From Dehalococcoidia bacterium (GTDB lineage: Bacteria > Chloroflexota > Dehalococcoidia > Lucifugimonadales > UBA1127), in contig DAOUJQ010000013.1 in the NCBI GenBank assembly GCA_034422455.1, forward strand, positions 17,632 through 81,631: 64,000 bases of DNA, written 5' to 3'. Shown piece after piece: positions 1-45,008 of this stretch. Under the pieces are notes generated by a model. The model saw only the letters and a program-made list of their open reading frames with translations, was not told where the DNA came from and searched no databases. Made by a program: the position numbers and the translations under genes. Each line of letters starts with the position of its first letter. Position 1 is the first letter of the stretch.

Positions 1-484
1 GCTCCATCTTCACGCCGGAGAGGGTCGCAAAACTGCCCTCATAGTCGGCGGTGTCCTCCGTCCACAGCGCCTTCATGACGCGGATGCCCTCTATGAAGCG
101 GGCGACGCGGCGCTCCTCGGCGAGGCCGTAGGCCGGGTACATGCGGGTATTGGTGCCGAGGCCGAGACCGACGGTGAGCCGGCCTTCGCTCAGGTGGTCG
201 AGGGTGCCGATGGCTTTGGCGAACTGCACGGGGTTGCGCAGCGTGCTCACGAAGACGGATGCGCCGATGCGGATGCGCTGGGTGAGGGCGGCGACGTACG
301 ACAGCAGTCCCACCGGCTCCAGCGACGCGATGATGCCGGTGATCTGCTCGGCGACCCAGAGGTCATCGTAGCCGAGGGCCTCCGCGCGGGCCACGAACCG
401 GCGCACGAGGGCCATGTCGACAGCGCCGTCGGCGAACCCCTGCGGCACCGCGATGCCCAGCTTCACCCCGCTCTTCGTCAGCAT
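1..484 (-). CDS. LLM-class (luciferase-like) flavin/F420-dependent oxidoreductase, C-terminal part outside window
   Basis: Hand translation of the minus strand from ATG 484-482 gives MLTKSGVKLGIAVPQGFADGAVDMALVRRFVARAEALGYDDLWVAEQITG...LDHLSEGRLTVGLGLG. The pattern matches 739-1704 and 35087-35959. It is absent from the ORF track because the window edge cuts it. Confidence 0.75.
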   Translation of the reverse strand, partial: MLTKSGVKLGIAVPQGFADGAVDMALVRRFVARAEALGYDDLWVAEQITGIIASLEPVGLLSYVAALTQRIRIGASVFVSTLRNPVQFAKAIGTLDHLSEGRLTVGLGLGTNTRMYPAYGLAEERRVARFIEGIRVMKALWTEDTADYEGSFATLSGVKME

Positions 485-565
485 AGGCCCTCCTTGTGCG
501 GGGGTGATTGTAGCACGGGGGGAGGGGGGTGACGTCGTGCGGAGTAGGTTATGGACAGGGGTTGT

Positions 566-673
566 CTTCTGGTACCTCATCGAGAGGCACCAGAAGACCC
601 CTTCGACAGGCTCAGGGCGAACGGTCGAATTTGGCGGCGAACGTGGGGGCCCCTGCCTCCGCAGGGGCGACGG
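566..673. repeat. Hairpin-repeat cluster (C-like, D, B')
   Basis: Contains TCTTCTGGT...ACCAGAAGA, CCCCTTCGACAGGCTCAGGGCGAACGG (598-624) and GGCCCCTGCCTCCGCAGGGGCGACGG (648-673). Confidence 0.8.
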
Positions 674-738
674 TGAGTGGGAGGCCCTTCGCGGTTGACC
701 CTGCGTGTTGGCACGGCTAGGCTTCACGTGCTCCCAAA

Positions 739-1704
739 TTGCGCGAGGAGACAGCTGTGGCCCTTGCGAACCAGGCCAAGATCGGCATATCGCTGCCCCA
801 GGCCTTCCCGGACGGGCCGGTGCAGCCGGCGGTGGTCTCGCGGTTTGCCCAGCGCGCCGAGGACCTGGGCTACCACAGCCTGTGGGTGCAGGACCGGTTC
901 ATGGGGCGGACGACGTGGCTGGAGCCGCTGGGGCTGCTGTCGTTTGCGGCGGGGGTGACGTACGACATCCGGCTGGGCGTCGCGACGATGCCGCTGCCGT
1001 GGCACAACCCGGCGCGGCTGGCTAAATCGCTGGCGTCGCTGGACCAGCTCTCCGGCGGGCGGATGATCGCGGGGCTGTCGCTCGGCGGATATTACGTCAA
1101 CGAGAACCTGCCGGGCACGGCGCCGGAGCGTCGCGTCGCGGCCTTCAACGAGGCGCTGGAGCTAATGCAGCGGCTGTGGACGGAGGAGGACGTCACCATC
1201 GACGGCGCCTTCTGGCCGGTGCGCGACGCTACCCTCGACCCGAAGCCAGTGCAGACGGCGGGCCGCGGGCACATGCCGATCTTCCTCGGCGGCGGGCACC
1301 CCAACGCGATCCGGCGGGCCGTGCGCGTCGCCGACGGGTGGATCGGCGGCAGCTCGACGTCCATCGAGGCGTTCCGCGAGCAGGCGGCGATGGTGCAGGA
1401 CGCGCTGGACGCGGCGGGGCGCGACCGCGCGACCTTCACTATCGCCAAGCGGCAGTTCCTCGCGCTGGACGACAGCGTCGAGCGGGCGACCAAGCGCATG
1501 CGCGACTGGGCGGAGCGCAGCATCATGAACGCGGACCTGGGCGAGCGCGCCAGCCTGCGCGGCCCGAGCGGCGAGGTGGCGGCGGGCCTGCAGGAGATCG
1601 TCGACGCGGGGGCGGACCTGCTGGTGCTGAACCCCGTCGACGACCTGCTGGCGCAGGTGGAGCACCTGGCGCTGGTGATGGGGCTGGAGGACGACGATAG
1701 GTAG
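739..1704 (+). CDS. LLM-class flavin/F420-dependent oxidoreductase
   Basis: ORF track, 321 aa. Contains GYHSLWVQDRFMG...LDQLSGGRMIAGLSLGG, typical of luciferase-like monooxygenases. The true start may lie a few codons downstream. Confidence 0.85.
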   Translation: MREETAVALANQAKIGISLPQAFPDGPVQPAVVSRFAQRAEDLGYHSLWVQDRFMGRTTWLEPLGLLSFAAGVTYDIRLGVATMPLPWHNPARLAKSLASLDQLSGGRMIAGLSLGGYYVNENLPGTAPERRVAAFNEALELMQRLWTEEDVTIDGAFWPVRDATLDPKPVQTAGRGHMPIFLGGGHPNAIRRAVRVADGWIGGSSTSIEAFREQAAMVQDALDAAGRDRATFTIAKRQFLALDDSVERATKRMRDWAERSIMNADLGERASLRGPSGEVAAGLQEIVDAGADLLVLNPVDDLLAQVEHLALVMGLEDDDR

Positions 1705-1723
1705 GGTGGGCGCTATCGCGGCC

Positions 1724-1800
1724 CCGTTCATGCTTCGATTTCCCTCAGCACGAACGGTTTCCCCGCCCCTCTGGGTTCCTGCCTGCGCAGGAACGACGAG
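1724..1800. repeat. Modules A + B
   Basis: Contains CCGTTCATGCTTCGATTTCCCTCAGCACGAACGG (1724-1757) and CCCCGCCCCTCTGGGTTCCTGCCTGCGCAGGAACGACGAG (1761-1800). Confidence 0.85.
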
Positions 1801-1834
1801 AGGGTGTGCGACAGGAATTTGGAAGGAGGACACC

Positions 1835-2326
1835 ATGCCTGACCTGACACCACTCGCGGAGTCCGTGGGGGCGCTGCTGAAGGAGCGCGGCGAGAAGATC
1901 GCGATTGCCGACTCGTCGGCGGGCGGGCTGATCTCGGCGGCGCTGCTGTCGGTGCCGGGGGCGTCGGCGTACTACCTGGGCGGCATCGTGTCGTACACGG
2001 GGGTGTCGCGGCTGGCGCTGCTGGGGATCTCGGAGGACGACATGGCTCGCGCCGGGATGCGGGCGAGCACAGAGCCGTACGCGGCCCTCATCGCCAAGAC
2101 GCTGCGCGAAAAGATGGGCGCGACGTGGGCGCTCGCGGAGACGGGCGCCAGCGGGCCGACGGGCAACCGCTACGGCGACGACGCGGGGCACGCGTGCTTC
2201 GCCGTCGCCGGCCCCGTGGAGCGCGCGGTCACGCTGGAGACGGGCAGTGCAGACCGGGAGGCGAACATGTGGGCCTTCGCGCGCCGGGCGCTGGAGCTGC
2301 TGGAGGAGTGCGTGCGAGCGGCGTAG
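1835..2326 (+). CDS. CinA-family / PncC-type nicotinamide-nucleotide amidohydrolase domain protein
   Basis: ORF 1706-2326 trimmed to ATG 1835, which follows GGAAGGAGGA; the upstream part of the ORF only translates repeat modules. ADSSAGGLISAALLSVPGASAYYLGGIVSY is the CinA C-terminal domain pattern. Confidence 0.85.
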   Translation: MPDLTPLAESVGALLKERGEKIAIADSSAGGLISAALLSVPGASAYYLGGIVSYTGVSRLALLGISEDDMARAGMRASTEPYAALIAKTLREKMGATWALAETGASGPTGNRYGDDAGHACFAVAGPVERAVTLETGSADREANMWAFARRALELLEECVRAA

Positions 2327-2335
2327 GGGGCGCAT

Positions 2336-2596
2336 CGCCCTTCGATTTCCCTCAGGGCGAACGGAGGGGGGGCGGGCGACGTAGGTCGCGGGGTTTCTGG
2401 ATACCGGCATACGCCGGTATGAGGGGGCGGAGAGACAGAAGAGGGCGGTGGTCACCCCGCCCAGTACCACCCCTCTGGGCCCCTGCCTTCGCAGGGGCGA
2501 CGGGCGCTGTCGCGCCCCCGTTCATCCTTCGATTTCCCTCAGGACGAACGGAGGGGGAGGCGGGTTTGTCGGGGCCCCTGCCTCCGCAGGGGCGAC
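2336..2596. repeat. Densest mosaic: A, C, B', A, B'
   Basis: A lies at 2336-2364, C (GGGTTTCTGGATACCGGCATACGCCGGTATGAGGGGG) at 2391-2427, B' at 2471-2503, A at 2518-2551 and B' at 2572-2596. Confidence 0.85.
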
Positions 2597-2662
2597 AGGG
2601 GGTGCGTTGCCGTCGCCCGACGCCCTGTGTACCCTAGACCCATCCCGCAACAGGAGTGACCT

Positions 2663-3145
2663 ATGGTGAAGAGCGCCGCGAGCACCGTCGAGGAGTACAT
2701 GGCCGAGCTGTCGCCGGAGAGGCGCGAGGCCCTGGGCGTCGTCCGGGACGTCGTGCTGGAGAACCTGCCGGAGGGCTACGAGGAGATCATGGACTTCGGC
2801 ATGATCAGCTACGTCGTGCCGCTGGAGGTGTTCCCGAAGACGTACAACGGGCACCCCTTGATGTACGCCGCGCTGGCCGACCAGAAGAACCACATGGGCC
2901 TCTACCTGATGTGCCTGTACTCCCACCAGGAGAGCCTGCACTGGTTCGAGGAGCGGTACCGGGCCAGCGGCAAGAAGCTGGACATGGGGAAGTCGTGCGT
3001 GCGCTTCAAGCGGCTCGACGACCTGCCCCTCGACGTGGTGGGCGAGGTCATCGCCAAGACGCCGATGGAGAGCTACATCGCCTTCTACGAGGAGGCCCGG
3101 GCAGCGTACACGCCGCGGAAGCGTGCGCAGGCGAAAGCGAATTAG
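2663..3145 (+). CDS. DUF1801 (YdhG-like) domain protein
   Basis: ORF track, 160 aa. Contains STVEEYMAELSPERREALGVVRDVVLENLPEGYEE...MISY, typical of DUF1801. Confidence 0.75.
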   Translation: MVKSAASTVEEYMAELSPERREALGVVRDVVLENLPEGYEEIMDFGMISYVVPLEVFPKTYNGHPLMYAALADQKNHMGLYLMCLYSHQESLHWFEERYRASGKKLDMGKSCVRFKRLDDLPLDVVGEVIAKTPMESYIAFYEEARAAYTPRKRAQAKAN

Positions 3146-3147
3146 AG

Positions 3148-3182
3148 GCGTTCACCCTTCGATTTCCCTCAGGGCGAACGGG
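3148..3182. repeat. Module A
   Basis: GCGTTCACCCTTCGATTTCCCTCAGGGCGAACGG. Confidence 0.8.
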
Positions 3183-3211
3183 GGAACCCGGAGTGGTCAG
3201 CGAGGAGCGAC

Positions 3212-3520
3212 ATGCACATCCTGTTTGTGACCATCAACATGAAGCCGGAGCACCGCGAGCGGTACCTGGAGGAGATGCTCCTGAACGCGAAGGGCGCTCG
3301 CGAGGACGAGCCGGGCTGCCTGCGCTTCGACGTGGTGCAGGACGCCAACGACCCGAACACCATCCACCTGTACGAGGTCTACACGGACGAGGCGGCGTTC
3401 CAGGCGCACACGTCGGCGCCCCACTTCCTGCGCATGCGGGAAACGACGGCCGACTGGCGCGCGGGGCAGTCGGTGCACATGGGGACGAATTTGGCGCCGT
3501 CGGATGCGGAGTGGGGGTAG
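3212..3520 (+). CDS. Antibiotic-biosynthesis-monooxygenase (ABM/YgiN-like) family protein
   Basis: ORF track, 102 aa. Contains CLRFDVVQDANDPNTIHLYEVYTDEAAFQAHTSAPHF, a ferredoxin-like ABM domain signature. Confidence 0.8.
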   Translation: MHILFVTINMKPEHRERYLEEMLLNAKGAREDEPGCLRFDVVQDANDPNTIHLYEVYTDEAAFQAHTSAPHFLRMRETTADWRAGQSVHMGTNLAPSDAEWG

Positions 3521-3545
3521 GGGGAAGGTTAAGGCCGTTGAACGC

Positions 3546-3657
3546 GGGGTTCCTGGTTACCGGCATGCGCCGGTATGAAGGGTTGAGGGCGAATGGCTTC
3601 GGGAGCGACCCCGCCCACGCCCCGCCCCTCTGGGTTCCTGCCTGCGCAGGAACGACG
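3546..3657. repeat. Modules C + B
   Basis: GGGGTTCCTGGTTACCGGCATGCGCCGGTATGAAGGG (3546-3582) and CCCCGCCCCTCTGGGTTCCTGCCTGCGCAGGAACGACG (3620-3657). Confidence 0.85.
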
Positions 3658-3700
3658 ATTGGATTTGTGGGAACAAGTATGTTATGACAAGGAGAGTGTC

Positions 3701-4252
3701 ATGCCACGGGTGAAGCTGTTGACGGAGAAGACGGACGTTGGTGAGGACCAGCACGGAGAAATTGACGCGATTATCGAGACGCTGAACCGCGTCAGGGGGC
3801 CGTTCGGCGTGCTGCTGTACAGCCCGGGGCTGGCGCAGAAGGTCATGGAGGCCGGCGCGCACGTCCGCCTGAAGTCCACCCTGTCGATGGTCGAGCGCGA
3901 GCTGTGCATCATCGCCGTCTCCCGCGAGAAGGACGCGCGGTACGAGTGGGCGTCGCACGTCGCGACCGGCCGCCGCCACGGCATACGCGAGGAGGCCATC
4001 GAGGCCGTGCGCAACCGCGAGTCTGTCGACGGGCTGGAGCAGGACGAGCAGGACATCATCACCTACGTCCGCCAGCTCCTGCAGACCAACAAGGTGGAGC
4101 AGTCGCTGTTCGACTCGCTGGTCGAGCGCAAGGGCACACGCTGGCTGGTCGAGCTGACGGGCACCATCGGCCAGTACCAGTACATTTCGGCCATCAACAA
4201 CGCGTTCGACCTGCAGCCGGCTGAGGACGCCGACCAGCTTCCGGTGCCGTAG
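3701..4252 (+). CDS. Carboxymuconolactone decarboxylase (AhpD-like) family protein
   Basis: ORF 3593-4252 trimmed to ATG 3701 (MPRVKLL); the upstream part translates repeat modules. RELCIIAVSREKDARYEWASH matches the CMD-family helix pattern. Confidence 0.7.
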   Translation: MPRVKLLTEKTDVGEDQHGEIDAIIETLNRVRGPFGVLLYSPGLAQKVMEAGAHVRLKSTLSMVERELCIIAVSREKDARYEWASHVATGRRHGIREEAIEAVRNRESVDGLEQDEQDIITYVRQLLQTNKVEQSLFDSLVERKGTRWLVELTGTIGQYQYISAINNAFDLQPAEDADQLPVP

Positions 4253-4259
4253 CGCGTCG

Positions 4260-4670
4260 ATGGAAGCGCAGCGAGGGCAGTTCGCGGAGGGGCCGCTGCA
4301 GACGGAGTCGCTGTACACGCGCGTCGGGGGCATCCCGTACTTCACGGAGTTGGTGGAGCGCTTCTACGCGAGGGTGGAGGCCGACCCGGTCCTGCGTCCC
4401 ATCTACCCGGAGGACCTGGAGCCGGGGAAGCACAACCTCGCCATGTTCCTGGTGCAGCTGTGGGGCGGGCCGCCGTACTTCGCGATGGAGCGCGGCAGGC
4501 CGATGCTGCGCATGCGGCACCTGCCCTTCGCCATCGGGCAGGCCGAGCGCGACGCGTGGTTCACGCACATGCGCGACTGCGTGCTGGAGTCGGGCTGCGA
4601 CGAGGGCGACACGGCCATCCTCATCGACTATTTCGACAAGGCGTCCCAGTTCATGATCAACAAGGAGTAG
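4260..4670 (+). CDS. Group II truncated hemoglobin (GlbO-like)
   Basis: ORF track, 136 aa. Contains LYTRVGG...FYARVEADPVLRPIYPEDLEPGKHNLAMFLVQLWGGPPYF...RGRPMLRMRHLPF, the trHbO signature. Confidence 0.85.
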   Translation: MEAQRGQFAEGPLQTESLYTRVGGIPYFTELVERFYARVEADPVLRPIYPEDLEPGKHNLAMFLVQLWGGPPYFAMERGRPMLRMRHLPFAIGQAERDAWFTHMRDCVLESGCDEGDTAILIDYFDKASQFMINKE

Positions 4671-4681
4671 GGGCGGCGGCC

Positions 4682-4773
4682 CCGGTTCACCCTTCGATTT
4701 CCCTCAGGGCGAACGGGGGTCAGCCCCGCCCGCGCCCCGCCCCTCTGGGTTCCTGCCTGCGCAGGAACGACGG
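4682..4773. repeat. Modules A + B
   Basis: A lies at 4682-4716 and B at 4735-4773, ending 4 nt before the tam stop codon. Confidence 0.85.
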
Positions 4774-4777
4774 AGAA

Positions 4778-5554
4778 CTACCGGACGGCGACCATGAAGA
4801 TACGGCGGAAGGGGAAGATGGTTTTGCCGTCGGCCTGCTTGGGGTAGTGCGGGGCGACGCGTCGGCTGTACTCCTCGACGAATGCGGCGCGCTCGTCGTC
4901 GGTCAGGGGATCGAGGAGCGGGCGCAACGATGACCCGGACGTCCACGCGACGATGGGGTTGTCGCCCTCCAGCTGCTGGTGGTAGGTGGTCTCCCAGATG
5001 TTCAGGTAGCTGACCAGCGGGCGCAGGATGGCGTAGTACTCCTGCGAGGTCAGCACCGGGACGCCGCGCAGCAGCGGCGCAACGCGGTCGCGCCATGCCG
5101 GGTTCTGTGCCGTGTCCGACATGCTCGTGTGGCTGGGCTCGCGCCAGTTGTTGGGCACCTGGATCGCGAGCGCGCCGCCGGGCTTCACCGCCTCCACGAC
5201 GCGCGGCAGCAGCGTTTCGTGGTCGTCCAGCCACTGGAAGACGGCGTTGGAGTAGACGACGTCGCCGAGGGCTTCCGGCCGCCACGCCGTCAGGTCCGCC
5301 TCCACCCACTCGATGTCGCCGTGCTCGCTGCGGGCGCGCTCCAGCATGTCGGGCGAGCCGTCGACGCCGACGACCCTCGCGCCGGGCCAGCGGCGCTTCA
5401 GGTGGACGGTCGCGGTGCCGGGCCCGCAGCCGAGGTCGTACACCAGCCCCGGCCGGTCGATGGGCACCTGCGCCAGCAGGTCGAGGGCGGGCCGCAGCCG
5501 CTCGTTACCGAAGCTCAGGTAGACCTCTGCGTTCCAGTCGCTTGTGCTTGTCAT
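4778..5554 (-). CDS. tam: Trans-aconitate 2-methyltransferase-like SAM-dependent methyltransferase
   Basis: ORF 4778-5647 trimmed to ATG 5554 (MTSTSDWNAEVYLSFGNERLRPALDLL...VYDLGCGPG), which resembles a Tam-like N-terminus with SAM motif I. Confidence 0.8.
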   Translation of the reverse strand: MTSTSDWNAEVYLSFGNERLRPALDLLAQVPIDRPGLVYDLGCGPGTATVHLKRRWPGARVVGVDGSPDMLERARSEHGDIEWVEADLTAWRPEALGDVVYSNAVFQWLDDHETLLPRVVEAVKPGGALAIQVPNNWREPSHTSMSDTAQNPAWRDRVAPLLRGVPVLTSQEYYAILRPLVSYLNIWETTYHQQLEGDNPIVAWTSGSSLRPLLDPLTDDERAAFVEEYSRRVAPHYPKQADGKTIFPFRRIFMVAVR

Positions 5555-6092: not shown

Positions 6093-6191
6093 GGCTCCGC
6101 TTCCACCCTGCGAGGAACCACGAGCGCCGTTGGCAGCTCGGACTGCCGGCGGCGCTTTTGTTATGACCCCCTACGCATGGGGCACTGCGCA

Positions 6192-6226
6192 CCTCTGGAT
6201 ACCGACATGCGCCGCTATGACGATGG
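6192..6226. repeat. Degenerate module C next to tRNA-Gly
   Basis: CTCTGGATACCGACATGCGCCGCTATGACGATGG. Confidence 0.55.
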
Positions 6227-6234
6227 CAGGTGGA

Positions 6235-6309
6235 TGGAGCGGGCGATGGGAGTTGAACCCACGACAACCTGCTTGGAAGGCAGGGGCTCTGCCGCTGAGC
6301 TACGCCCGC
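6235..6309 (-). tRNA. tRNA-Gly (anticodon UCC), CCA encoded
   Basis: The reverse complement reads GCGGGCGTAGCTCAGCGGCAGAGCCCCTGCCTTCCAAGCAGGTTGTCGTGGGTTCAACTCCCATCGCCCGCTCCA. It has a cloverleaf, anticodon loop CTTCCAA and T-loop GGTTCAACTCC. Confidence 0.92.
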
Positions 6310-7440: not shown

Positions 7441-7667
7441 ATTTCCCTTTTTTCGCTTTTTCTTCGTTTCCGTATCTGAGTTGTTCCCTTTCAGCTACGA
7501 GTCGATTTGGGGAATCGACCAGGTTGCAGATACGGTTCGATTTTGCGAACTTGCGCGCCGCAACAGTTGAAGACCTCGGGCTGTGGTTGCTTTGCGTGGG
7601 CGAAAGACGGACCCGTTGACCGGGCCCACCGGGCGGGCCAGGCCCCTGCCTGCGCAGGGGCGACGAG
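7441..7667. repeat. Degenerate E/F-related mosaic plus B'
   Basis: It shares GTTGCAGATAC, CTGAGTTG, GTTGAAG and GGCTGTGGTTG strings with elements E and F. B' (GGCCCCTGCCTGCGCAGGGGCGACGAG) lies at 7641-7667. Confidence 0.45.
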
Positions 7668-9977: not shown

Positions 9978-10004
9978 AGGACGACGGTACTAGCGAACAA
10001 ATAG

Positions 10005-10044
10005 GAGCGGCCCGGCGGAGTTCCGCCGGGCCGCTCTCATTTTG
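10005..10044. terminator. Intrinsic terminator between the convergent Rieske and CDF genes
   Basis: GAGCGGCCCGGCGGA (10005-10019) pairs perfectly with TCCGCCGGGCCGCTC (10022-10036), followed by TCATTTTG. Confidence 0.75.
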
Positions 10045-10070: not shown

Positions 10071-11342
10071 TCACGATTGAGGCTGGAAGCGGGCCTGCAG
10101 GTGCTCGACGTGGTGGCGCTCCTCCGTGCACTCCGCGACGGAGAGCTCCACCTGGATCGTCACGTGGTTGAGCCCGTGGCTGTACACGATCTTCCGGAGC
10201 TGCTTCAGTATGTCCTCCTGGCGTCCGGCCTGGGTGGGGCTCACGAAGACGTGGGCCGTGAAGGCGTCGTAGCCGGAGGTGATGGTCCAGGCGTGGACGT
10301 CGTGGACCAGCGTCACGCCCTGCACGTCCTCCATCTCGCTGCAGATGTTGTAGATGTCCACGGTCTCCGGCGTGCCCTCCAGCAATACCTTGAACACCCG
10401 CATGAACAGGCCCCAGGAGACCTTGAGGATGAGCAGGCCGATGAGGACGCTCATGATGGGGTCGGCGATGTACCAGGTCGAATTGTCGTCGGCGAACGCA
10501 ACGATCAGGATGCCGGAAATGATGACGCCGACGGAGCCCATGAGGTCCGCCATGACGTGCTGGAAGGCGCCCTCCACGTTGAGGCTCTCTCCCGCCGCCC
10601 GGTGCAGCACCCACGCCGCGGCGATGTTGATGATGAGGCCGATGACGCCGACGCTGAACATCAGCGGGCCCTCGACCTCCGGCGTGTCGGAGAAGCGGTG
10701 GTAGGCCTCCAGGAAGATCCACCCGGCGATGAGCCACAGGCTCACGGTGTTGGCGAGCGCGGCAAGCACCTCCGTCCGGTAGAAGCCGAAGGTCGAACCC
10801 GCCACGGCCGGCCGGTTGGCGATCCACATGGCGAACAGCGCCAGCGCGATGGAGGCGGCGTCGGTCAACATGTGCGCGGCGTCCGCCAGCAGCGCGAGGC
10901 TGCCGGAGAGGATGCCGCCGACGACCTCCACGAACATGAACCCGCCAATGAGGACGAGCGCCAAAATCAGGCTCTTCTTGCTGGCCCCGCGCAGGTCATG
11001 GGCATGGTCATGGCCGCCGTGCCCATGGTGATGGTGACCGTGGCCCGCGTGGGCGTGGTCATGCTCATCGTGGTCGTGGTCCTCATGCTCGTGGTCGTGG
11101 TCATGCTCGTGGTCGTGCTCCGTGTGGTCGTGCCCCGCGTGGTCGTGGGCATGGTCATGCTCATGGTCGTGGCCCGCGTGGTCGTGGGCATGGTCATGCT
11201 CGTGATCGTGCCCCGCGTGGTCGTGCCCTTCATGGTCGTGAGCATGGTCGTGGTCGTGCTCCGCGTGGTCATGGTCGTGGCCCGCGTGGTCGTGGGCATG
11301 GTCATGCTCGTGATCATGGTCATGCCGGTGTTCAGTCGTCAC
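10071..11342 (-). CDS. Cation diffusion facilitator (CzcD/ZitB-like) transporter with a very long His/Asp-rich N-terminus
   Basis: ORF track, 423 aa, GTG start with GGGAAGGGATGG upstream. The C-terminal ~300 aa has the CDF pattern ([16 protein letters not shown]...[13 protein letters not shown]...). The first ~115 aa are HDHxH repeats. Confidence 0.9.
11031..11340 (-). repeat. Coding tandem repeat (His/Asp tract of the CDF gene)
   Basis: The core GCGTGGTCGTGGGCATGGTCATGCT recurs at about 11137, 11176 (39-nt period, or 13 aa: [13 protein letters not shown]) and 11284. Confidence 0.7.
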
Positions 11343-11359
11343 GTCTATCCATCCCTTCC

Positions 11360-11400
11360 CACAGAAACGAAAGCCCGGCGATGCATTCTTGCGCCGGGCT
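11360..11400 (-). terminator. Hairpin plus T-run between the His-rich gene and the CDF gene (terminator/attenuator)
   Basis: AGCCCGGCG (11372-11380) pairs with CGCCGGGCT (11392-11400). On the minus strand the hairpin is followed by TTCGTTTCTG. Confidence 0.55.
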
Positions 11401-11447
11401 CCCGTTTATCTCCCGCTACGGACGTGTCTGCCTAGCTACGCCGAAGC

Positions 11448-12133: not shown

Positions 12134-13534
12134 ATGAAACAGAACAGGCCATCGTTCCGGGCCACGGCCCGATGGTCCGCGCTCCTGGCGCTTGCCGCCG
12201 CCCTCGGCGTGCTGGCGGCCGCCGCGTGCGGCCCAACCGACGACGCGACCGAGCCCTCGTCGTCACAGGAGGCCGCCGGGACCACGGAGACGTCCGGCAG
12301 CGACGCGACGACGGCCACGACGGACGCCGCCCCGAAACCGAGCGTCGAAGTCGGCCACGCCGTCGGGATGATGGCCCCGGACTTCACCGCGGAGACGGTG
12401 GCGGGCGACTCGATCACCCTGTCGGAGGTGACCGCGGGATCGCCGGTCCTCCTCTACTTCTTCACGACGTGGTGACCGACGTGCAATGCCGAGTTTCGGC
12501 ATCTGCGGTCGCTCTACCCCGGCTACCAGGACGACGTCGCCCTCATCGGCGTCGGCGTCGACCCAAGCGAGTCAGCCGACAAAATCTCGAGATGGGCCGA
12601 AAGGAACGGCTTTGATTGGCCCCTCACGGAAGCGGTCGGCAGCGCCCTGACCGACTACCGCGTGACGCAGCAATCCGCAGCCGTCGGCATCGACGCGGAC
12701 GGCATCATCGTGCTCCGCAAGAACGGCGGCCTCCAGGGCGAGGGCAAGTGGACGGAGTGGCTGGACACCCTGGGCGGTCCAAGGACTTCCGCGGAGCTGG
12801 AGGCTCCCTCCACCGCCGCCCAGGCGGCCCCGGCTCCCGTGGAAGCCGTCCCGACGCAGGCGCCAGCGCCGAGCCAGCCTTCGCCAACGGCCGCGCCCGC
12901 GCCCACAACAGCTCCGCCTCCTGCGGCTACGGCAGCTCCGGCCCCGACCACGGGCCCAGCGCCGACGGCAGCGCCTCCCCCGACGGCAATCCCAGCCCCG
13001 ACACAGGCGCCGCCTCCACCCCCAACGGCAACACCACGGCCCCGCCCGACATCGACGCCGACCCCCGCGCCAACGGCGACGCCGAACATTCCTGTCGGCC
13101 ACAACATCGGCCAGCGGGCGCCGGACTTCACCGTGACGGCGGTGAGCGGGGAGACGATCACGCTGTCCGAGGTTACGGCAACCGGCAAGCCCGTCCTCAT
13201 CTACTTCTTCGCGACATGGTGACCGACCTGCAATGCGGAGTTGCCGCATCTGCAGGGCCTCTACTCAGCCAATAGCGATGACGTGTTGATCGTGGGCATC
13301 AGCACGGACCCGGGCGACTCCGAGTCCCGCGTCCGAAGCCACGCCCGCAACAGGGGGATAACGTTCCCGATGGCGCCGCACGACCGCAGCATCGTGATCG
13401 ACTCCTACCGGGTGAGCGCGCAGTCCAGCGCCGTCGGCATCGACGCGAACGGGGTCATCCGGCTCCGCAAGGGCTACGGGCTGCAGGACGGGAACGAGTG
13501 GCGGAACTGGGTGGAGACGCTGACGGGCAGCTAG
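12134..13534 (+). CDS. Tandem two-domain TlpA/ResA-like thioredoxin-fold lipoprotein with two in-frame UGA (predicted selenocysteine) codons
   Basis: ORFs 11984-12475, 12662-13222 and 13241-13534 share one frame and are separated only by TGA at 12473 and 13220. The TGAs sit in YFFTTW-U-PTC and YFFATW-U-PTC, the redox CxxC position. A SECIS-like hairpin follows each. The signal peptide ends in a lipobox-like LAAAAC after ATG 12134. Confidence 0.75.
12482..12507 (+). promoter_or_regulatory. Bacterial SECIS-like hairpin 1
   Basis: Upper stem ATGCCGA (12486-12492) pairs with TCGGCAT (12496-12502) around loop GTT. Lower stem is TGCA/TGCG with a C bulge. The upper stem starts 10 nt after the TGA. 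Confidence 0.7.
13228..13255 (+). promoter_or_regulatory. Bacterial SECIS-like hairpin 2
   Basis: Upper stem ATGCGG (13233-13238) pairs with CCGCAT (13244-13249) around loop AGTTG. Lower stem is CTGCA/TGCAG with a C bulge. The spacer after the TGA is 10 nt. The stem differs from hairpin 1 by compensatory changes. Confidence 0.7.
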
Positions 13535-13537
13535 CCT

Positions 13538-13695
13538 CCGTTCATCCTTCGATTTCCTCTTTCGAGAACCTCAGGACAGGCTCAGGACGAACGGAAGGCT
13601 CCACACCGCCCCGCCCCTCTGGGTTCCTGCCTGCGCAGGAACGACGATTCTCCCTCCAAAACCCCTGGATACCGGCATTCGCCGGTATGAGGTGG
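13538..13695. repeat. Modules A/D hybrid + B + C
   Basis: The hybrid lies at 13538-13594, B at 13607-13646 and C (CCCCTGGATACCGGCATTCGCCGGTATGAGGTGGG) at 13661-13695. Confidence 0.85.
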
Positions 13696-15150: not shown

Positions 15151-15214
15151 CTTCCGGATACCGGCGAACGCACGTATGAGGAGTGGCCCTTCGACAGGCT
15201 CAGGGCGAACGGGG
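15151..15214. repeat. Modules C' + D
   Basis: CTTCCGGATACCGGCGAACGCACGTATGAGGAG and GGCCCTTCGACAGGCTCAGGGCGAACGGGG. Confidence 0.75.
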
Positions 15215-15932: not shown

Positions 15933-16324
15933 GGGGATTCGTCTTGCTTTTCGTGTTGAAGCTGAGTTGGCACGTTGCAGATACAACACGGATATTACCC
16001 GAGGGGAAGCGAATCCCGGCCCTTCGACAGGCTCAGGACAGGCTCGGCGTCCGCTTCCCCCACCCCAGCCCTCCCCCACGAGGGGGGAGGGAGAACGGGT
16101 CGCGGCGCGGCTGTGGTGTTGTGGCAGCGGTGCATGGGACGAGGGTAGCGGGCGGGACGGCTTTCGCGCGAGGGGGTGGTGGCAGGGGAGCCCCGCTGCC
16201 GCCCCTCTGGGTTCCTGCCTGCACAGGGCCCTTCGACAGGCTCAGGGTAATCGGAGGGGGCTGGAGCGGCAGCCGCCGTTGGGCGCGGGGTTTCTGGATA
16301 CCGGCATGCGCCGGTATGAGGGGG
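15933..16324 (+). repeat. Composite repeat copy 1: E - D - F - B - D - C
   Basis: E lies at 15933-16017, D-like at 16020-16049, F at 16107-16188, B at 16199-16228, D at 16229-16255 and C at 16289-16324. It is colinear with 20059-20462. Confidence 0.8.
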
Positions 16325-18740: not shown

Positions 18741-18896
18741 AGGCCACTTCCTTTCTCCGGCGAATGATTTCGGGGAGTCTAGCAACGGGGTTTTTCGCCG
18801 TCAATTTGCTTTGCGTGCGCTTCCGGAGCACTTTTGAGCAGCGGCACGGCACCGGCCATGGTCCGCTTGGCAACCATCAGCCCGGCCCGTTCCGAG

Positions 18897-18971
18897 GAAC
18901 CCTTCGACAGGCTCAGGGCGAACGGGCCCTCCCCACACGCCTGGATATCGGCATCCGCCGGTATGGCGGGG
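18897..18971. repeat. Modules D + C
   Basis: GAACCCTTCGACAGGCTCAGGGCGAACGGG and CCTGGATATCGGCATCCGCCGGTATGGCGGGG. The C-to-T change in the C stem gives a G-U pair. Confidence 0.8.
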
Positions 18972-19064
18972 TGGGCGGCAAAAGTCAGGGGCCTGTCAAC
19001 AGGACAGGCCCCTTGCGCATTTGCCTTTGCCGCCATATGTGCTTTCGGCATTCCCATGGCGGGC

Positions 19065-19963: not shown

Positions 19964-20003
19964 CCCCGCCCCTCTGGGTTCCTGCCTTCGCAGGAACGAC
20001 GAG
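19964..20003. repeat. Module B
   Basis: CCCCGCCCCTCTGGGTTCCTGCCTTCGCAGGAACGACGAG. Confidence 0.85.
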
Positions 20004-20058
20004 AACGGGGTTGGGGGGTGTGCGGGGCCGAATTGATTCCCGCGTCCGGTGTAGCTGC

Positions 20059-20462
20059 GGAGAATTGTTTTGTTTTTCGTGTTGAAGCTGCGTTGGCACG
20101 TTGTAGATACAAGACGAAAATTTTTTCATCCGGGGGGAACAATTCCCGGCCATCGGACATGGGGCCATACACGGCGGGGCGGTTGTGGTGTTGTGGTGGC
20201 GGTGCATGGGGTGAGGGTAGCGGAGAGGACGGCGTTCGCGCGAGGGGGTGGTGGCAGGGGGGTGCCCGTTCATCCTTCGATTTCCCTCAGGACGAACGGG
20301 GGAGGTTGGGGTCGCGAGCGTGTTCCGTCGCGGGGTTGCCCCGCCGCCGCCCTGCCCCTCTGGGCCCCTGCCTGCGCAGGGGCGACGAGAGGAGAGTTGG
20401 GCATTGCAGCCGCTGTTGGGTGCAGGGTTTCTGGATACCGGCATCCGCCGGTATGAAGGGGA
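20059..20462 (+). repeat. Composite repeat copy 2: E - F - A - B' - C
   Basis: E lies at 20059-20147, F at 20179-20261, A at 20266-20299, B' at 20355-20387 and C at 20425-20462. Confidence 0.8.
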
Positions 20463-33592: not shown

Positions 33593-34264
33593 ATGTCAGA
33601 ATGGCTGGGCCGCGAGTACAACTACGCCGTGTGGCGGCCGTCGCAGGCCGAGTTCCAGCTGCTGAAGGAGATCCACCACGCGGGCGACGTCGCCCCCGAC
33701 TTCACGCTGCCCCTCCTCGACGGCGGCGAGCTGAGCCTCTCCGACCTGAAGGGCAAGCCCGTCGTCATCGAGTTCGGCTCCATCACCTGACCGCCATGCC
33801 AGGGGGAGTTCCCCCTCATGGACCAGCTGGCCCGCGACTACGCCGACCGCGCCCACTTTCTCTTCGTCTACGTGCGTGAGGCCCACCCGGACGACTTCCC
33901 GCAGTGGCCGGAGCACAAGACCATCAAGCAGAAGTTCGAGCAGGCGCGCCTCATGCGGGAGCGCCACGGCACGCCGCGCACCATCGTGGTCGACGACGTG
34001 GAGGGCACGGTGCACCGGGCGTGGAGCGGCATGCCCAACATGAGCTGGATCATCGACCACACCGGCCGCGTGTTCTTCAAAGCGGGGTGGACGGTGGAGT
34101 CCGACCTGCGCGCCGGACTGGAGGACTACTTCGACCTGAGGGAGCGCATGCGGGAGGGCTCGACGGCGCGCTACTACAAGGAGTACATCACCGCCACGCC
34201 GCGGATGCGCGAGGGCGGTGGCATGATGCGGCCGCAGCGCGAGCCCGCGGAGACCGGCGGGTAA
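33593..34264 (+). CDS. Deiodinase-like (DIO/Prx-like thioredoxin-fold) protein with one in-frame UGA (predicted selenocysteine)
   Basis: ORFs 33374-33790 and 33818-34264 share a frame across TGA 33788-33790. ATG 33593 follows AAGGAGGG. The motif VVIEFGSIT-U-PPC ... FLFVYVREAHPDD resembles the iodothyronine deiodinase active site FGSxTUPPF. A SECIS-like hairpin follows. Confidence 0.75.
33794..33821 (+). promoter_or_regulatory. Bacterial SECIS-like hairpin 3
   Basis: Upper stem AGGGGG (33801-33806) pairs with CCCCCT (33811-33816) around loop AGTT. Lower stem is CCATG/CATGG with a CC bulge. The spacer after the TGA is 10 nt. Confidence 0.7.
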
Positions 34265-34293: not shown

Positions 34294-34331
34294 CCCCGTT
34301 CGTCCTGAGGGAAATCGCAGGGTGAACGGGG
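34294..34331. repeat. Module A, reverse orientation
   Basis: CCCCGTTCGTCCTGAGGGAAATCGCAGGGTGAACGGGG. Confidence 0.8.
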
Positions 34332-35959: not shown

Positions 35960-35983
35960 AGTTGCCTCCGTCCGTTGATTGGC

Positions 35984-36012
35984 CCCCTTCGGCTCCGCTC
36001 AGGGCGAACGGG
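35984..36012. repeat. Module D variant
   Basis: CCCCTTCGGCTCCGCTCAGGGCGAACGGG. Confidence 0.6.
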
Positions 36013-36069
36013 CGGGCGATTCACAGGTCGCCCCTGCAATGGGGGAAGCGGGCTTTGCCGTGCGCGGGC

Positions 36070-37487: not shown

Positions 37488-37521
37488 CCGTTCGTCCTGA
37501 GGGAAATCGAAGGATGAACGG
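37488..37521. repeat. Module A, reverse orientation (left flank of the GIY-YIG gene)
   Basis: CCGTTCGTCCTGAGGGAAATCGAAGGATGAACGG. Confidence 0.85.
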
Positions 37522-37893: not shown

Positions 37894-37927
37894 CCGTTCA
37901 TCCTTCGATTTCCCTCAGGACGAACGG
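37894..37927. repeat. Module A, forward orientation (right flank of the GIY-YIG gene)
   Basis: CCGTTCATCCTTCGATTTCCCTCAGGACGAACGG, the exact reverse complement of 37488-37521. Confidence 0.85.
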
Positions 37928-39785: not shown

Positions 39786-41170
39786 CGCCCGTTCCCCGCT
39801 CGCCCTGGGCCTGTCGAAGGGCCGCGTCCCGCCGTTCGCCCTGAGCTTGTCGAAGGGTCCAGCCGCAGCCGCGCCGCCCGCGCGTGCCCCTCGAGGCCCT
39901 CGGCCTCGGCCAGCCGCGCGGCGTCCTCGCCCAGCGCGTGGAACGCCTCCGAGTCCAGCCCGATGACGTTGGTCACCTTCAGGAACTGGTGGACGCCCAG
40001 CGCGCTGTTGAACCGCGCCGTGCCGCCCGTCGGCATGACGTGGCTCGGCCCGGCAATGTAGTCGCCCGCCACCTCCGGCGAGGCCTCGCCGAGGAAGACG
40101 CCGCCCGCGTTGCGCACGCTGACCAGCAGCCGCTGCGGCTCCTCGACGAGGAGGCACATGTGCTCCGGCCCGTACAGGTTCGCGAGCGACATCGCCTGGT
40201 CCAGGTCGTCCACCAGCACGGCCATGCCCTGGTTCTCGACGGCCGCCGACGCGATGTCCCGCTTGGGCAGCGTGACGAGCTGCCGCTCGACCTCCGCGCG
40301 CACGCTCTCCAGCGTGTCCCGCGATGTCGTGATAAGCACCGGCGACGCCAGCGTGTCGTGCTCCGCCTGCGCCAGCAGGTCGGCCGCGCACACGACGGGG
40401 TCGACGGACGCGTCCGCGATGACCAGCGTCTCCGTGGGTCCGTACAGGCCGTCGACTGCCACCTCGCCGTACACCATCTGCTTGGCCAGCGTCACGAAGA
40501 TGTTGCCGGGCCCGCAGACGATGTCCACCTTGGGCACCGACTCCGTCCCGAACGCCATCGCGGCGATGGCCTGGGCGCCGCCAATCTGGAAGACCCGGTC
40601 GACGCCCGCGACGTACGCCGCGGCCAGCACCGCCGGGTTCGGGCCCGCTCCCTGCCGCGACGGCGTCGCCAGCACGACCTCTTCGACGCCCGCCACGCGC
40701 GCGGGCACTGCGGTCATCAGCACCGTCGAGGGGTAGGCGGCCTGCCCGCCGGGCGCGTAGACGCCGGCCCGGGCCATCGCCGTGAACTGCTCGCCAAGGC
40801 CCGTCGCGGGGTCCCGCCACGACCGGGGCATGCAGGCTTCGTGGAAGGCGCGAATACGGCCGGCGGCGGTGTGCAGCGCGCGCCGCAGCTCCTCCGGCGT
40901 CTCGTCATAGGCCTGCCGCAGCGCGGAGGCGGGGGCCTCCAGCGTGTCCGGCGCGCCGCCGTCGAGCATCCCGGCGTACCTGCGCACCGCGGCGTCGCCG
41001 CCGTCGCGCACGTCGTCCAGCACGCGCGACACCGCCTGCCGGGGCGTCAGCCGCTCGCCGAACAGCGCCTCGATGCGCTCCAGCGTCTCCGGCGACGCTG
41101 AGTCCCACACGCGAAGCGCGCCCCGTTCAAGCGCCTTCCGCCCGTTTTCATAGCCCACGACTACCCGCAT
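39782..41170 (-). CDS. hisD: Histidinol dehydrogenase with a repeat-encoded C-terminal extension
   Basis: ORF track, 462 aa. The body is typical HisD (GGAQAIAAMAFGTES...CGPGNIFV...AQAEHD). The last ~27 aa (DPSTSSGRTAGRGPSTGPGRAGNGR) are encoded by two D-type repeat modules. Confidence 0.9.
   Translation of the reverse strand: MRVVVGYENGRKALERGALRVWDSASPETLERIEALFGERLTPRQAVSRVLDDVRDGGDAAVRRYAGMLDGGAPDTLEAPASALRQAYDETPEELRRALHTAAGRIRAFHEACMPRSWRDPATGLGEQFTAMARAGVYAPGGQAAYPSTVLMTAVPARVAGVEEVVLATPSRQGAGPNPAVLAAAYVAGVDRVFQIGGAQAIAAMAFGTESVPKVDIVCGPGNIFVTLAKQMVYGEVAVDGLYGPTETLVIADASVDPVVCAADLLAQAEHDTLASPVLITTSRDTLESVRAEVERQLVTLPKRDIASAAVENQGMAVLVDDLDQAMSLANLYGPEHMCLLVEEPQRLLVSVRNAGGVFLGEASPEVAGDYIAGPSHVMPTGGTARFNSALGVHQFLKVTNVIGLDSEAFHALGEDAARLAEAEGLEGHARAARLRLDPSTSSGRTAGRGPSTGPGRAGNGR
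39796..39859. repeat. Two D modules (reverse orientation) inside the hisD 3' coding region
   Basis: CCGCTCGCCCTGGGCCTGTCGAAGGGCC and CCGTTCGCCCTGAGCTTGTCGAAGGGTC. Confidence 0.75.
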
Positions 41171-41233: not shown

Positions 41234-42268
41234 TCAGGCCTGGTTGCCGGCCACGGCGGCCGCCAGCCGCTCGTAGGCGTCGCACTGCGCGAAGAACAGG
41301 TACGACGGCTGCGAGATCGTGATGCCGTTGCCGCCGAACCCGCGCAGGTGCTCCACCGCGTCCAGCGCCCGGTCCCTCCCTACGAGGATGGTCACGCTGT
41401 AGAGGTCGTCGCCGCTGGGCTCGAAGACCGGCGCGACCGTCGGGCCCTCCAGCCCGGACAGGTCCCGCCGCTCGAGGATCAGCGCCGCGACGGCCTCCGG
41501 CGACGGCCCGCGCACGTTGGCGGCCACGCGGCAGTAGTCCTGCGCCCGCAGGTACCCCTCGGCGCGCTCCAGCACGGCCTTCACCAGCGCCATCTTGCCG
41601 CCGGACTCCCGCAGCGCGCGCCGGTTCGCGATGAAGCACGACTGCGACGACAGGATCGTGCCGTCCAGCAGCGTCTTCAGCCGGTTCTCGCGCAGCGTCG
41701 TGCCCGTCGCCGTGATGTCCGCGATGAGGTCCGCCTGCCCGATGGCCGGGGCCACCTCCAGCGTCCCGCTCGACGGCACGAGCTTCAGGTAGTTGATGCC
41801 CCTGGCGAAGAGGAACTGCTGCGTCAGGCGCGGGTACTTCGTCGCCACCCGCAGCTCCCGCCCGCGCTCCCGGAACTCCAGCGCGATGTCCGCAAGGTCG
41901 GCGGTCGTCGTCACGTCGAGCCACGTCTCCGGCACCGCCAGCGCCAGCTCGCAGCCGCCGAACCGCAGGTCGTCCATCACCACGAGGGCGTCGCCGCCCT
42001 CCTGCGACGACTCCCTGACCCGGTCGAGACCCGTGATGCCGCAGTCCGCCGTGCCGTCCTCCACCTTGCCCGGTATGTCCGAGGCCCGTTGGAAGAGCGT
42101 GTTGACGCCCGGCACCCCCGCTAGGCTGCCGGTGTAGCCCCGGCTGCTGACGCGGCGGTTACTCATGCCGCAGGCGCGCAGGAACTCCAGCGTCGGCTCG
42201 TACAATGCGCCGTCGCTGGGAATCGCGAGCCGCAGCTCGGTTGCGCCGTTAGAGCCAGGTGCGTTCAC
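41234..42268 (-). CDS. hisG: ATP phosphoribosyltransferase, long form with C-terminal regulatory domain
   Basis: ORF track, 344 aa. Contains LRLAIPSDGALYEPTLEFL...DIPGKVEDGTADCGITGLD...ADITATGTTLRENRL, plus a HisG_C-like tail. Confidence 0.85.
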   Translation of the reverse strand: MNAPGSNGATELRLAIPSDGALYEPTLEFLRACGMSNRRVSSRGYTGSLAGVPGVNTLFQRASDIPGKVEDGTADCGITGLDRVRESSQEGGDALVVMDDLRFGGCELALAVPETWLDVTTTADLADIALEFRERGRELRVATKYPRLTQQFLFARGINYLKLVPSSGTLEVAPAIGQADLIADITATGTTLRENRLKTLLDGTILSSQSCFIANRRALRESGGKMALVKAVLERAEGYLRAQDYCRVAANVRGPSPEAVAALILERRDLSGLEGPTVAPVFEPSGDDLYSVTILVGRDRALDAVEHLRGFGGNGITISQPSYLFFAQCDAYERLAAAVAGNQA

Positions 42269-43688: not shown

Positions 43689-43890
43689 ACGCAATCCATT
43701 GTAGCTTAGGCAGGGCAGACCCTCAAACGGGGCGGGCAGCGGAGAGAGCCGGGAGCTAGTCGTTGCTGATGGTGACGTCGCCGGTCCGGCCGTCATACGT
43801 CATGGTGAAGTCACGGAGGGACGATCTGCCGAGGATGGCCGCGTATGGCAGTCCTGAATCAGACAACCGCGCGCCGAATACACTTGGGAG

Positions 43891-44986: not shown

Positions 44987-45008
44987 TGCGCTGTTCTCAG
45001 GCGAAAGG

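Follow-up and report, generated by a model that had tools for sequence, protein, structure and literature searches.

Hairpin repeat modules in a Dehalococcoidia genome form chained mosaics whose orientation follows GC skew

Introduction

The 64,000-nucleotide stretch analysed here (hereafter the window; positions 17,632 to 81,631 of contig DAOUJQ010000013.1, Dehalococcoidia bacterium assembly GCA_034422455.1) has a G+C content of 68% and carries about 40 short hairpin modules against 0 expected, mostly chained in the intergenic spacers. These modules belong to two hairpin families (A1 and A2 on the one hand, B, B' and C on the other), and their orientation tracks the G/C asymmetry of the DNA strands, independently of gene direction. 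The focal spacer of this study (2327-2662) holds, in this order, an A1 module, a C module, a linker hairpin, a B' module, a second A1 and a second B'.

Few non-coding repeats of bacteria are as abundant as the repetitive extragenic palindromes (REPs), which are usually discussed either as inverted doublets or as RNA elements. The original prediction for this stretch, based on the sequence and without database searches, described the modules as resembling mosaics of REPs (the bacterial interspersed mosaic elements, BIMEs), with paired changes that preserve the stems, and proposed that this structure is selected, probably at the RNA level (terminators or 3'-end stabilisers) or as recognition hairpins for a mobilising enzyme.

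Materials and Methods

The searched set consisted of the 64-kb window together with loci of about 8 kb from related genomes. An A1-pattern scan of 185,579 species genomes matched at least 111 eight-kb stretches; the loci were fetched by the A1 loop plus 3' arm, which limits the variation visible in that part and inflates the apparent conservation of the loop. Two covariance models (A1 and B/C) were built from the window copies and searched against the window and 99 eight-kb loci. The search for a mobilising enzyme covered 0.93 Mb (the window and 111 loci), about 8% of any one genome. Genes were called by third-codon-position G+C (GC3) for each locus, and GC skew was calculated from coding DNA only, with a cut-off of |skew| > 0.04.

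Results

Module families and their chains in the window

The B, B' and C modules align without gaps in a single frame (YCTGG, an 8-nt arm, (C/A)TNC, an 8-nt arm, GA), with all 18 window copies fitting as 8 + 4 + 8. On the minus strand, the window copies read CGTC-GTTCCTGC-GNAG-GCAGGAAC-CCA (B), CGTC- or TGTC-GCCCCTGC-GNAG-GCAGGGGC-CC(A/C) (B') and CCTC-ATACCGGC-GNAT-GCCGGTAT-CCA (C). The three are one family, and B and C do not represent separate ones. The second family is formed by A1, with an 11-bp stem and a 12-nt loop (CCGTTCATCCT-TCGATTTCCCTC-AGGACGAACGG), and by A2 (probably the module originally called D), which has the inner stem and 3' arm in common with A1 and differs in the loop (TCGACAGGCTC). 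A2 is often preceded by a separate 15-bp hairpin, E, and the A-family hairpins carry neither a GTAG nor a CGTC tag. The consensus sequences and stem variants given in the original prediction (B versus B', and the GCCCT, ATCCT and ATGCT forms of A) are confirmed by the alignment.

The A1 loop TTCGATTTCCCTCAG (with at most one mismatch) occurs 12 times in the window, compared with 0.00 expected from 100 shuffles, and the shared B/C frame (CTGG-N3-CCNGC-NTNC-GCNGG-N3-GA) 14 times, compared with 0.00 expected from chance. Covariance-model searches of the window recovered 13 A1 and 18 B/B'/C copies which, with about nine copies of A2 (CCCTTCGACAGGCTCAGGGCGAACGG), bring the total to about 40, so that the earlier figure of at least 35 stands; all ten chained sites previously listed are present. 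Across the window and related loci (0.83 Mb), the B/C model gave 185 matches. The modules of the window are listed below (coordinates, orientation, description).

564-598, plus: hairpin E, variable, preceding A2; GTCTTCTGGTACCTC-ATCGA-GAGGCACCAGAAGAC
599-624, plus: A2, CCCTTCGACAGGCTCAGGGCGAACGG; its reverse complement exactly matches a 26-nt repeat found in Sphingobium replicons
646-672, plus: B', reading CGTC-GCCCCTGC-GGAG-GCAGGGGC-CCC on the minus strand
1724-1757, plus: A1 hairpin, ATGCT/AGCAC stem variant
1772-1798, plus: B, reading CGTC-GTTCCTGC-GCAG-GCAGGAAC-CCA on the minus strand
2331-2364, plus: A1 with a degenerate outer 5' arm, opening the focal chain
2398-2424, plus: C, reading CCTC-ATACCGGC-GTAT-GCCGGTAT-CCA on the minus strand
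2443-2462, no strand: linker hairpin GGGCGG-N8-CCGCCC, between C and B'
2476-2502, plus: B', CGTC tag on the minus strand
2518-2551, plus: A1, CCGTTCATCCT-TCGATTTCCCTC-AGGACGAACGG, top-scoring copy (69 bits, covariance model)
2571-2597, plus: B', TGTC tag variant on the minus strand, closing the focal chain
3148-3181, plus: A1, beginning 3 nt past the stop codon of the upstream gene
3549-3661, plus: chain of C (3549-3584) and B (3631-3657)
4683-4772, plus: chain of A1 (4683-4716) and B (4746-4772), in a convergent spacer
6191-6226, plus: degenerate C adjoining a tRNA-Gly
7639-7665, plus: solitary B', in a divergent spacer
13538-13692, plus: chain of an A1/A2 hybrid (13538-13595), B (13620-13646) and C (13666-13692)
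15151-15212, plus: degenerate C-like unit and A2 (15187-15212)
16020-16321, plus: truncated A2 (about 16020-16050), truncated B fused to A2 (16206-16254) and C (16295-16321), with an 87-nt repeat between
18885-18972, plus: A2 with its 5' arm (18885-18925) and C (18937-18972), between two minus-strand genes
19975-20462, plus: B (19975-20001), A1 (20266-20299), B' (20361-20387) and C (20427-20462), between two minus-strand genes
28209-28242, plus: solitary A1, perfect GCCCT/AGGGC stem
32236-32379, plus: last plus chain before the flip; A2-like unit, A1 (32261-32294), B (32316-32342) and truncated A2 (32359-32375)
34296-34329, minus: first oppositely oriented A1
37488-37521, minus: A1
37894-37927, plus: A1, the sole copy of the second half retaining the plus orientation
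39805-39868, minus: two A2-type copies overlapping the 3' end of a minus-strand open reading frame (ORF)
54678-54796, minus: C with a loop insertion (54678-54745) and A1 (54763-54796)

The spread is uneven, with about 30 modules in the first 21 kb and few elsewhere. Chains begin 3-30 nt 3' of stop codons, and five consecutive unrelated genes (luciferase-like, CinA, DUF1801, ABM and CMD) each have a chain 3' of them. When the window and the loci are taken together, convergent spacers hold 79 modules, tandem spacers 156 and divergent spacers 26, and this 3:1 excess of modules in convergent over divergent spacers is compatible either with the tolerance of 3' ends to insertion or with an RNA role. 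The spurious ORFs that the modules had been said to generate are indeed module translations (PFDFPQGER, LWVPACAGTT and GFWIPA(Y/C)AGMR).

Two neighbouring features can be added. The 87-nt repeat, which lies outside the A, B and C modules, is found at 16102-16188 and 20174-20260 (89% identical), upstream of two module chains, both of them just downstream of minus-strand genes. The tRNA-Gly(UCC) at 6235-6309 (minus strand) is the gene abutted by the degenerate C module.

Stem covariation and conservation of unpaired positions

Among 139 distinct B/C copies, 98.6% of the stem cells are standard pairs and six of the eight pairs change on both sides, with 204 double-change cells compared with 65 +/- 7 in shuffles, a signal that is abolished by sliding the partner columns. 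The pairs themselves comprise 1082 Watson-Crick, 13 G.T and 5 A.C, and the variation falls into a few discrete subfamilies (e.g. GTTCCTGC, GCCCCTGC, ATACCGGC and ATTCCCGC). The signal is weaker for A1 (136 distinct copies), with 87.7% of cells paired, three of 11 pairs covarying and 55 double-change cells compared with 25 +/- 3 in shuffles; its stem variants include CCGTTC/GAACGG, CGGTTC/GAACCG and GTCCGTTC/GAACGGAC. Additionally, hairpin E in an orthologous spacer of the related chromosome OZ220679.1 (locus L074) carries two compensatory pair changes relative to the window copy. The paired stem changes noted in the original prediction thus have statistical support on 136-139 distinct copies from the window and 99 loci, and the stems appear to be structurally constrained, being kept through compensatory change.

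About half of the A1 copies hold a fixed A.C mismatch (G.T on the other strand). On the plus form (the G-rich strand), the A1 mismatches amount to 103 A.C versus 13 G.T and are therefore wobble pairs on the C-rich strand, an asymmetry that goes with the DNA strand rather than with the strand transcribed. Besides the stem, conservation extends to the unpaired tag, tail and loop of the modules. In particular, each of the 12 positions of the A1 loop shows 97-100% identity over the 136 distinct copies, although part of this apparent invariance comes from ascertainment, the loop having served as search pattern for the loci. The earlier statement that loop positions vary freely consequently applies to the third base of the B/C tetraloop (CTNC/ATNC), and not to the loop of A1. 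When the window was compared with Rfam at gathering thresholds, only RNase P and a tRNA were matched and no module family; a permissive scan of 400-5000 gave chance-level matches only.

Orientation relative to GC skew and to genes

All module copies found before 33 kb of the window are in the plus orientation, and six of the seven confident A1/A2 copies after 34 kb are in the minus orientation (a weak, degenerate plus match lies at 35979-36017). The GC skew of the window changes sign in the same interval (about 32-34 kb), with the cumulative G-C count peaking at 31 kb. In the larger set, orientation agrees with the sign of the coding-only GC skew for 179 of 188 modules (95%) and for 58 of 60 eight-kb chunks; OZ220679.1 on its own has 80 of 81 modules in agreement, and the relationship holds for every module type (93:4 for A1, 36:2 for A2 and 50:3 for B/C). 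The skew is a property of the DNA strand and not of transcription, with plus- and minus-strand genes having the same skew sign in 27 of 33 chunks (r = 0.80).

Gene direction has no such relationship with the modules. In tandem spacers, the transcript sense coincides with the plus form in 73 cases and with the minus form in 83 (37 versus 51 for A1, 10 versus 12 for A2 and 26 versus 20 for B/C), and plus-oriented chains sit between minus-strand genes at 18.9 and 20.0-20.5 kb. That orientation follows strand composition, and not gene direction, points to a DNA-level, replication-linked life cycle rather than to a terminator role. Neighbouring modules in strong-skew genomes, including the window, form 46 direct pairs and 1 inverted pair, and inverted neighbours are otherwise found only in weak-skew relatives (36 of 90 pairs). 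When folded as DNA, the C-rich strand (the one with the CGTC tag) gives the slightly more stable structure for 117 of 136 A1 copies (mean difference 1.2 kcal/mol) and for 131 of 139 B/C copies (mean difference 0.3 kcal/mol), and the whole focal chain has a z of -4.9 on this strand compared with -2.9 on the other.

At the cumulative skew peak, the window contains a low-GC island (30000-31300, 57% compared with 68%) holding a DUF3800 ORF (30349-31206, minus strand), with DinB (28980-30047) just upstream of it. An origin or terminus at the flip was considered and rejected, the genes there being housekeeping ones in addition to this island.

Dispersal and turnover among related genomes

Among the matches listed, the A1-pattern stretches (at least 111) all come from metagenome-assembled genomes (MAGs) of Dehalococcoidia/Chloroflexota. 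In OZ220679.1, the complete 2.59-Mb chromosome of a Dehalococcoidia MAG, 27 tabulated A1-matching chunks are spread over 0.19-2.56 Mb. The family is dispersed across complete Dehalococcoidia chromosomes; confinement to the region of the window, which the original prediction had named as an outcome that would count against it, is not observed. The Chloroflexota MAGs RHO1 and RHO3, which we take to be sponge-derived, also carry these repeats, and the source genome of the window is likewise taken to be a sponge-associated member of the Dehalococcoidia.

The stretch of OZ220679.1 from 402.8 to 460.5 kb is syntenic with the window (about 86% nucleotide identity), which allowed the comparison of related MAGs that had been proposed as a check. 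The orthologous spacers of both genomes all hold chains, with different module sets, and a spacer of only 7 nt in the window (4253-4259) corresponds in OZ220679.1 to one filled by an A1 and a C-like unit. Furthermore, a hisZ/hisS-like gene of OZ220679.1 (about 1581-1619 of locus L034) contains a 39-nt in-frame A1 insertion of 13 codons, made of the A1 hairpin and five flanking bases, with no evident target duplication. The resulting protein reads ...FEVWGG-PPSVRPEGNRRTD-GVRLASGGRYDGL, with the insertion just before the GGGRYDGL motif, and the window ortholog (42249-43796, minus strand) reads ...FEVWGGAVKLAGGGRYDGL without it. The modules therefore disperse, turn over between related species and can land inside genes. 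For insertion polymorphism at the strain level, an exact-protein look-up matched the source scaffold alone (scaffold_386 of ENA assembly ERZ23495174, 154.7 kb). Among 2.9 million viral contigs, A1 had 0 matches and A2 had 3, and carriage by phages was rejected.

Chains can also amplify locally, as is shown by a seven-fold tandem array in another relative (positions 1150-2650 of locus L042, CBDFLN010000001.1). Its unit of about 190 nt comprises a B-like hairpin (ATTCCCGC-N4-GCGGGAAT), an A1 and a GTAG double-foot hairpin (GTAGGGGCGAAA...TTTCGCCCCTAC), and the linkers of the array are strongly G/T-rich. In yet another relative, an IS110-family element of about 1.13 kb lies inside an A1 module (positions 3784-4916 of locus L093, about 1,283,784-1,284,916 of OZ244824.1). 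Its ORF (3954-4901) matches DEDD_Tnp_IS110 and Transposase_20, and the insertion falls between CCGTTCGTC[CT] and [CT]GAGGGAAATCGAAGG, with a CT dinucleotide on both sides; an uninterrupted paralogous unit is present at 5340-5400 of the same locus. A1 is thus specifically targeted by an IS110-type recombinase, in the way that some insertion sequences (ISs) of Pseudomonas target REPs.

Comparison with known repeat systems

The CGTC-tagged REPs described by Di Nocera, De Gregorio and Rocco (2013, PMC3733652) have a stem of 8 bp closed by a loop of 4 nt, with a CGTC tag (or its variants TGTC and CCTC) at one foot and a short unpaired CCA tail on the other side, and their CGTC-1 class is equated with dRS3 of Neisseria and RPE-6 of Rickettsia. 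Among the perfect-stem hairpins on the minus strand of the window there are 10 B/B' with CGTC, 3 C with CCTC and 1 with TGTC, besides two further, unrelated CGTC hairpins, and the plus-strand counts are 1 (CGTC), 0 (CCTC) and 1 (TGTC). The stem is followed by CCA in 11 of the 14 tagged B/B'/C copies, the others having CCC (672, 2597) or CTG (7665). On these sequence features, B, B' and C can be assigned to the CGTC-tagged REPs of the CGTC-1 class, with which they also share the heterogeneity of the stem, the high copy number and the placement mainly between tandem and convergent genes. REPs inside genes are reported as well (PMC3733652), although the intragenic copy found here is an A1 and not a B/C module.

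The differences from the published class are several. The repeats studied here occur in Chloroflexota (Dehalococcoidia), whereas Chloroflexi is not among the five phyla in which CGTC repeats are listed (PMC3733652). The A-T residues almost invariable at stem positions 1 and 2 of CGTC-1 (PMC3733652) are present in C (ATACCGGC) and in the ATTCCCGC variant of L074, but not in B (GTTCCTGC) or B' (GCCCCTGC), whose stems begin with GT or GC. The published repeats are mostly head-to-head dimers, which is an organisational tendency and not a definition (PMC3733652), whereas here single units are chained head-to-tail with other module types. Finally, the modules are polar to GC skew, on which that paper is silent; in a search of a limited literature collection for REPs, replichores, strand bias and GC skew, no title or abstract dealt with REP orientation relative to replication strands.

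The earlier comparison with BIME/REP mosaics fits. As in the BIMEs of E. coli and the Neisseria intergenic mosaic elements (NIMEs), the intergenic DNA holds short hairpin modules joined to conserved linkers in changing order, and tandem amplification is possible. Unlike here, where chains are co-oriented, the REPs of BIMEs alternate in orientation, are GTAG-tagged and are linked to REP-associated tyrosine transposases (RAYTs); no repeated GTAG hairpin was found in the window, and the GTAG double-foot hairpin occurs in the relative with the tandem array. In the systems formed by REP doublets forming hairpins (REPINs) and RAYTs, as in IS200/IS605, hairpins are recognised in single-stranded DNA. 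The latter elements transpose as single-stranded DNA on the lagging-strand template, with an orientation bias tied to replication (PMC3971601, PMC6006769), whereas the bias observed here is relative to GC skew. Their insertion without target duplication is consistent with the one clean insertion observed here, but inverted REP doublets are lacking in our strong-skew genomes, the GTAG tag of REPINs is absent and no Y1 transposase was found in the 0.93 Mb searched. With Rho-independent terminators, the modules have in common that they are G+C-rich hairpins just past stop codons, and they differ in having no U-tract and an orientation unrelated to the gene.

The A family extends beyond this phylum in one of its forms. 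Large replicons of Sphingobium, Comamonas, Novosphingobium, Moraxella and others carry the 26-nt core of A2 (CCGTTCGCCCTGAGCCTGTCGAAGGG) at 93-100% identity, with identical copies in Sphingobium and Comamonas and up to 17 places per Sphingobium record, one example lying between convergent rpoN and DUF1489 genes. For A1, only two weak, partial plasmid matches were found outside Chloroflexota, and its loop variant is essentially absent where the A2 core occurs. Literature searches with the loop strings gave unrelated primer matches only. As far as checked, therefore, what is new comprises the CGTC-1 REPs in Dehalococcoidia, the apparently undescribed A hairpin family with its conserved loop (its A2 form being shared with Proteobacteria) and the near-absolute co-orientation of all module types with GC skew.

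Other features of the window

Three thioredoxin-fold ORFs (12437-12498, 13184-13245 and 33752-33813) have an in-frame TGA at the first Cys of CxxC, in the contexts FFTTW*PTC, FFATW*PTC and GSIT*PPC (asterisk, TGA), and the ORF after the third matches the Pfam family T4_deiodinase. They are candidate selenoprotein genes, split by ORF callers. A minus-strand ORF (10071-11405) contains at 11014-11325 an imperfect 12-33-nt periodic repeat encoding a His/Asp/Glu-rich stretch (HEHDHDH...) that is probably of low complexity and binds metal. Three paralogous genes, each about 1.18 kb long and with 70-86% nucleotide identity, follow one another in tandem at 59094-62546, and a bacterial RNase P RNA (class A) lies at 45007-45398 (minus strand).

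Discussion

Based on these results, we consider it probable, with some reserve, that the modules are non-autonomous hairpins of the REP class, arranged in BIME/NIME-like mosaics and spread or filtered as single-stranded DNA, with any RNA role being secondary. The modules would work as hairpins while the DNA is single-stranded at the replication fork, and a strand-specific enzyme (for which a Y1/HUH-type transposase is the obvious model) would copy, insert or remove them there; either insertion or survival would be limited to one orientation relative to fork movement. Such a limit would account for the common direction of all three module types in any one replication arm. Modules would persist mainly just past stop codons because insertions there presumably do little harm, and those that are transcribed would fold as 3' hairpins, as a by-product or secondary use that does not shape the family. 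Of the two roles put forward in the original prediction, that of recognition hairpins for a mobilising enzyme gives the best fit to the evidence.

The other role, that of terminators or 3'-end stabilisers, had been preferred there and fared less well. A terminator consensus scan gave 9 sites in 20 kb, compared with 8.1 expected, and no A, B or C module was among them, because none is followed by a T-run, even though classical T-tailed hairpins exist in the same window (10004-10037 and 6122-6157). The absence of T-runs after any module and the orientation relative to transcript sense (73 to 83) led us to reject intrinsic termination. One could still suppose that the modules are primarily RNA elements, either terminators without a U-tract or hairpins blocking 3'-5' exonucleases, with stems kept by the RNA fold. 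Their position tightly behind stop codons, the three-fold excess of convergent over divergent spacers and the compensatory changes would all agree with this, a palindromic stem would fold in RNA from either transcription direction, and REPs are reported to stabilise mRNA (PMC3733652). An RNA function cannot, however, explain the near-absolute polarity relative to GC skew. It also sits badly with the independence from transcript sense in each module type, with the A1 wobble asymmetry being tied to the DNA strand and with the copy found in frame within a coding sequence, and we regard it as unlikely.

Two further explanations operate at the DNA level. The modules might be polar chromosome signals or protein-binding sites selected by the host (analogous to the FtsK-orienting polar sequences, KOPS, to Chi, or to the gyrase and IHF sites in BIMEs), with the orientation kept for replication, segregation or supercoiling. 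The near-absolute co-orientation of all three module types with strand composition, the nearly invariant A1 loop, the conservation of the A2 core across phyla and the G-rich linkers of the plus form are what such signals would be expected to display. Yet module content is not conserved at orthologous spacers of species with about 86% nucleotide identity, the copies are very unevenly spread, weak-skew sister genomes carry both orientations, and both the intragenic insertion and the tandem amplification of chains look like selfish spread; a KOPS-like polar octamer, GGGNAGGG, was rejected as a candidate, as it does not flip across the skew switch. This explanation seems to us the least probable, and improbable in itself. 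Alternatively, intrastrand template switching at quasi-palindromes, in which one arm serves as template for the other as the DNA replicates, followed by amplification of different master copies, could produce both perfect stems and apparent covariation without any functional constraint, which is in keeping with the nearly complete Watson-Crick pairing of B/C stems (with few wobble intermediates), with the few discrete subfamilies and with the fact that related sequences can exceed all shuffles without any structure. Against this, about half of the A1 copies keep their A.C mismatch uncorrected, and the unpaired tag, tail and loop are conserved in addition to the stem; together, these conserved unpaired parts and the persistent A.C/G.T pairs argue for recognition and not for mere self-templating. 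Template switching, which can coexist with spread as single-stranded DNA, is a possibility that we hold to be rather doubtful as the full account, though less so than either of the other two.

The proposed spread as single-stranded DNA has to be set against several observations. The covariation cells count sequences and not events, are inflated by the amplification of subfamilies and come from alignments fitted to the model. Relatives with near-zero skew carry modules in mixed orientation (107 plus versus 97 minus), often as inverted neighbours, and the polarity is therefore lineage-specific. Moreover, polarity was measured relative to GC skew, from which we infer that it reflects fork direction. 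Along OZ220679.1 the skew switches sign several times, a pattern suggestive of inversions or of an unusual architecture. In the sampled chunks, the G-rich strand carries just 38% of the coding bases, and the flip in the window has no dnaA gene, DnaA box or dif-like core. The enzyme itself was also sought. The look-up for a RAYT/IS200-605-type gene, which the original prediction had recommended, found none in 0.93 Mb (about 8% of any one genome). Among the six-frame ORFs of the window and 111 loci there was no credible one with a Y-x2-3-NP motif, with or without an upstream HUH, and phmmer with the E. coli RayT against 8,460 ORFs of this set gave no match at E <= 10. Candidates bracketed by inverted modules (eight ORFs compared with Pfam) were discarded, being ordinary enzymes, one IS110 transposase and an orthologous lipoprotein pair without a Pfam domain. 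In this absence of an associated transposase the modules resemble the CGTC REPs, which are reported as apparently lacking a dedicated one (PMC3733652).

A broader proposal can tentatively be made, as a possibility only. In some Dehalococcoidia lineages, REP-type hairpins from three or more sequence families unrelated to one another may have become almost fully polar to the replication strands through a fork-associated, strand-specific enzyme other than a RAYT, which would read the invariant 12-nt A loop and the CGTC tag and would install or remove the hairpins on single-stranded DNA. Should this be true, the identical A2 core in Proteobacteria would imply the same machinery or host factor across phyla. 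We know of no established way of spreading for the CGTC class, and these 'orphan' REPs would gain a propagation mechanism. On the practical side, the modules produce many false ORFs and break assemblies and alignments in Chloroflexota MAGs. If the polarity is that of fork direction, these genomes would also offer a natural setting in which to identify the enzyme and the active strand of REPs that lack a RAYT, and the repeats could serve in practice to mark replication arms and inversions in uncultured symbionts.

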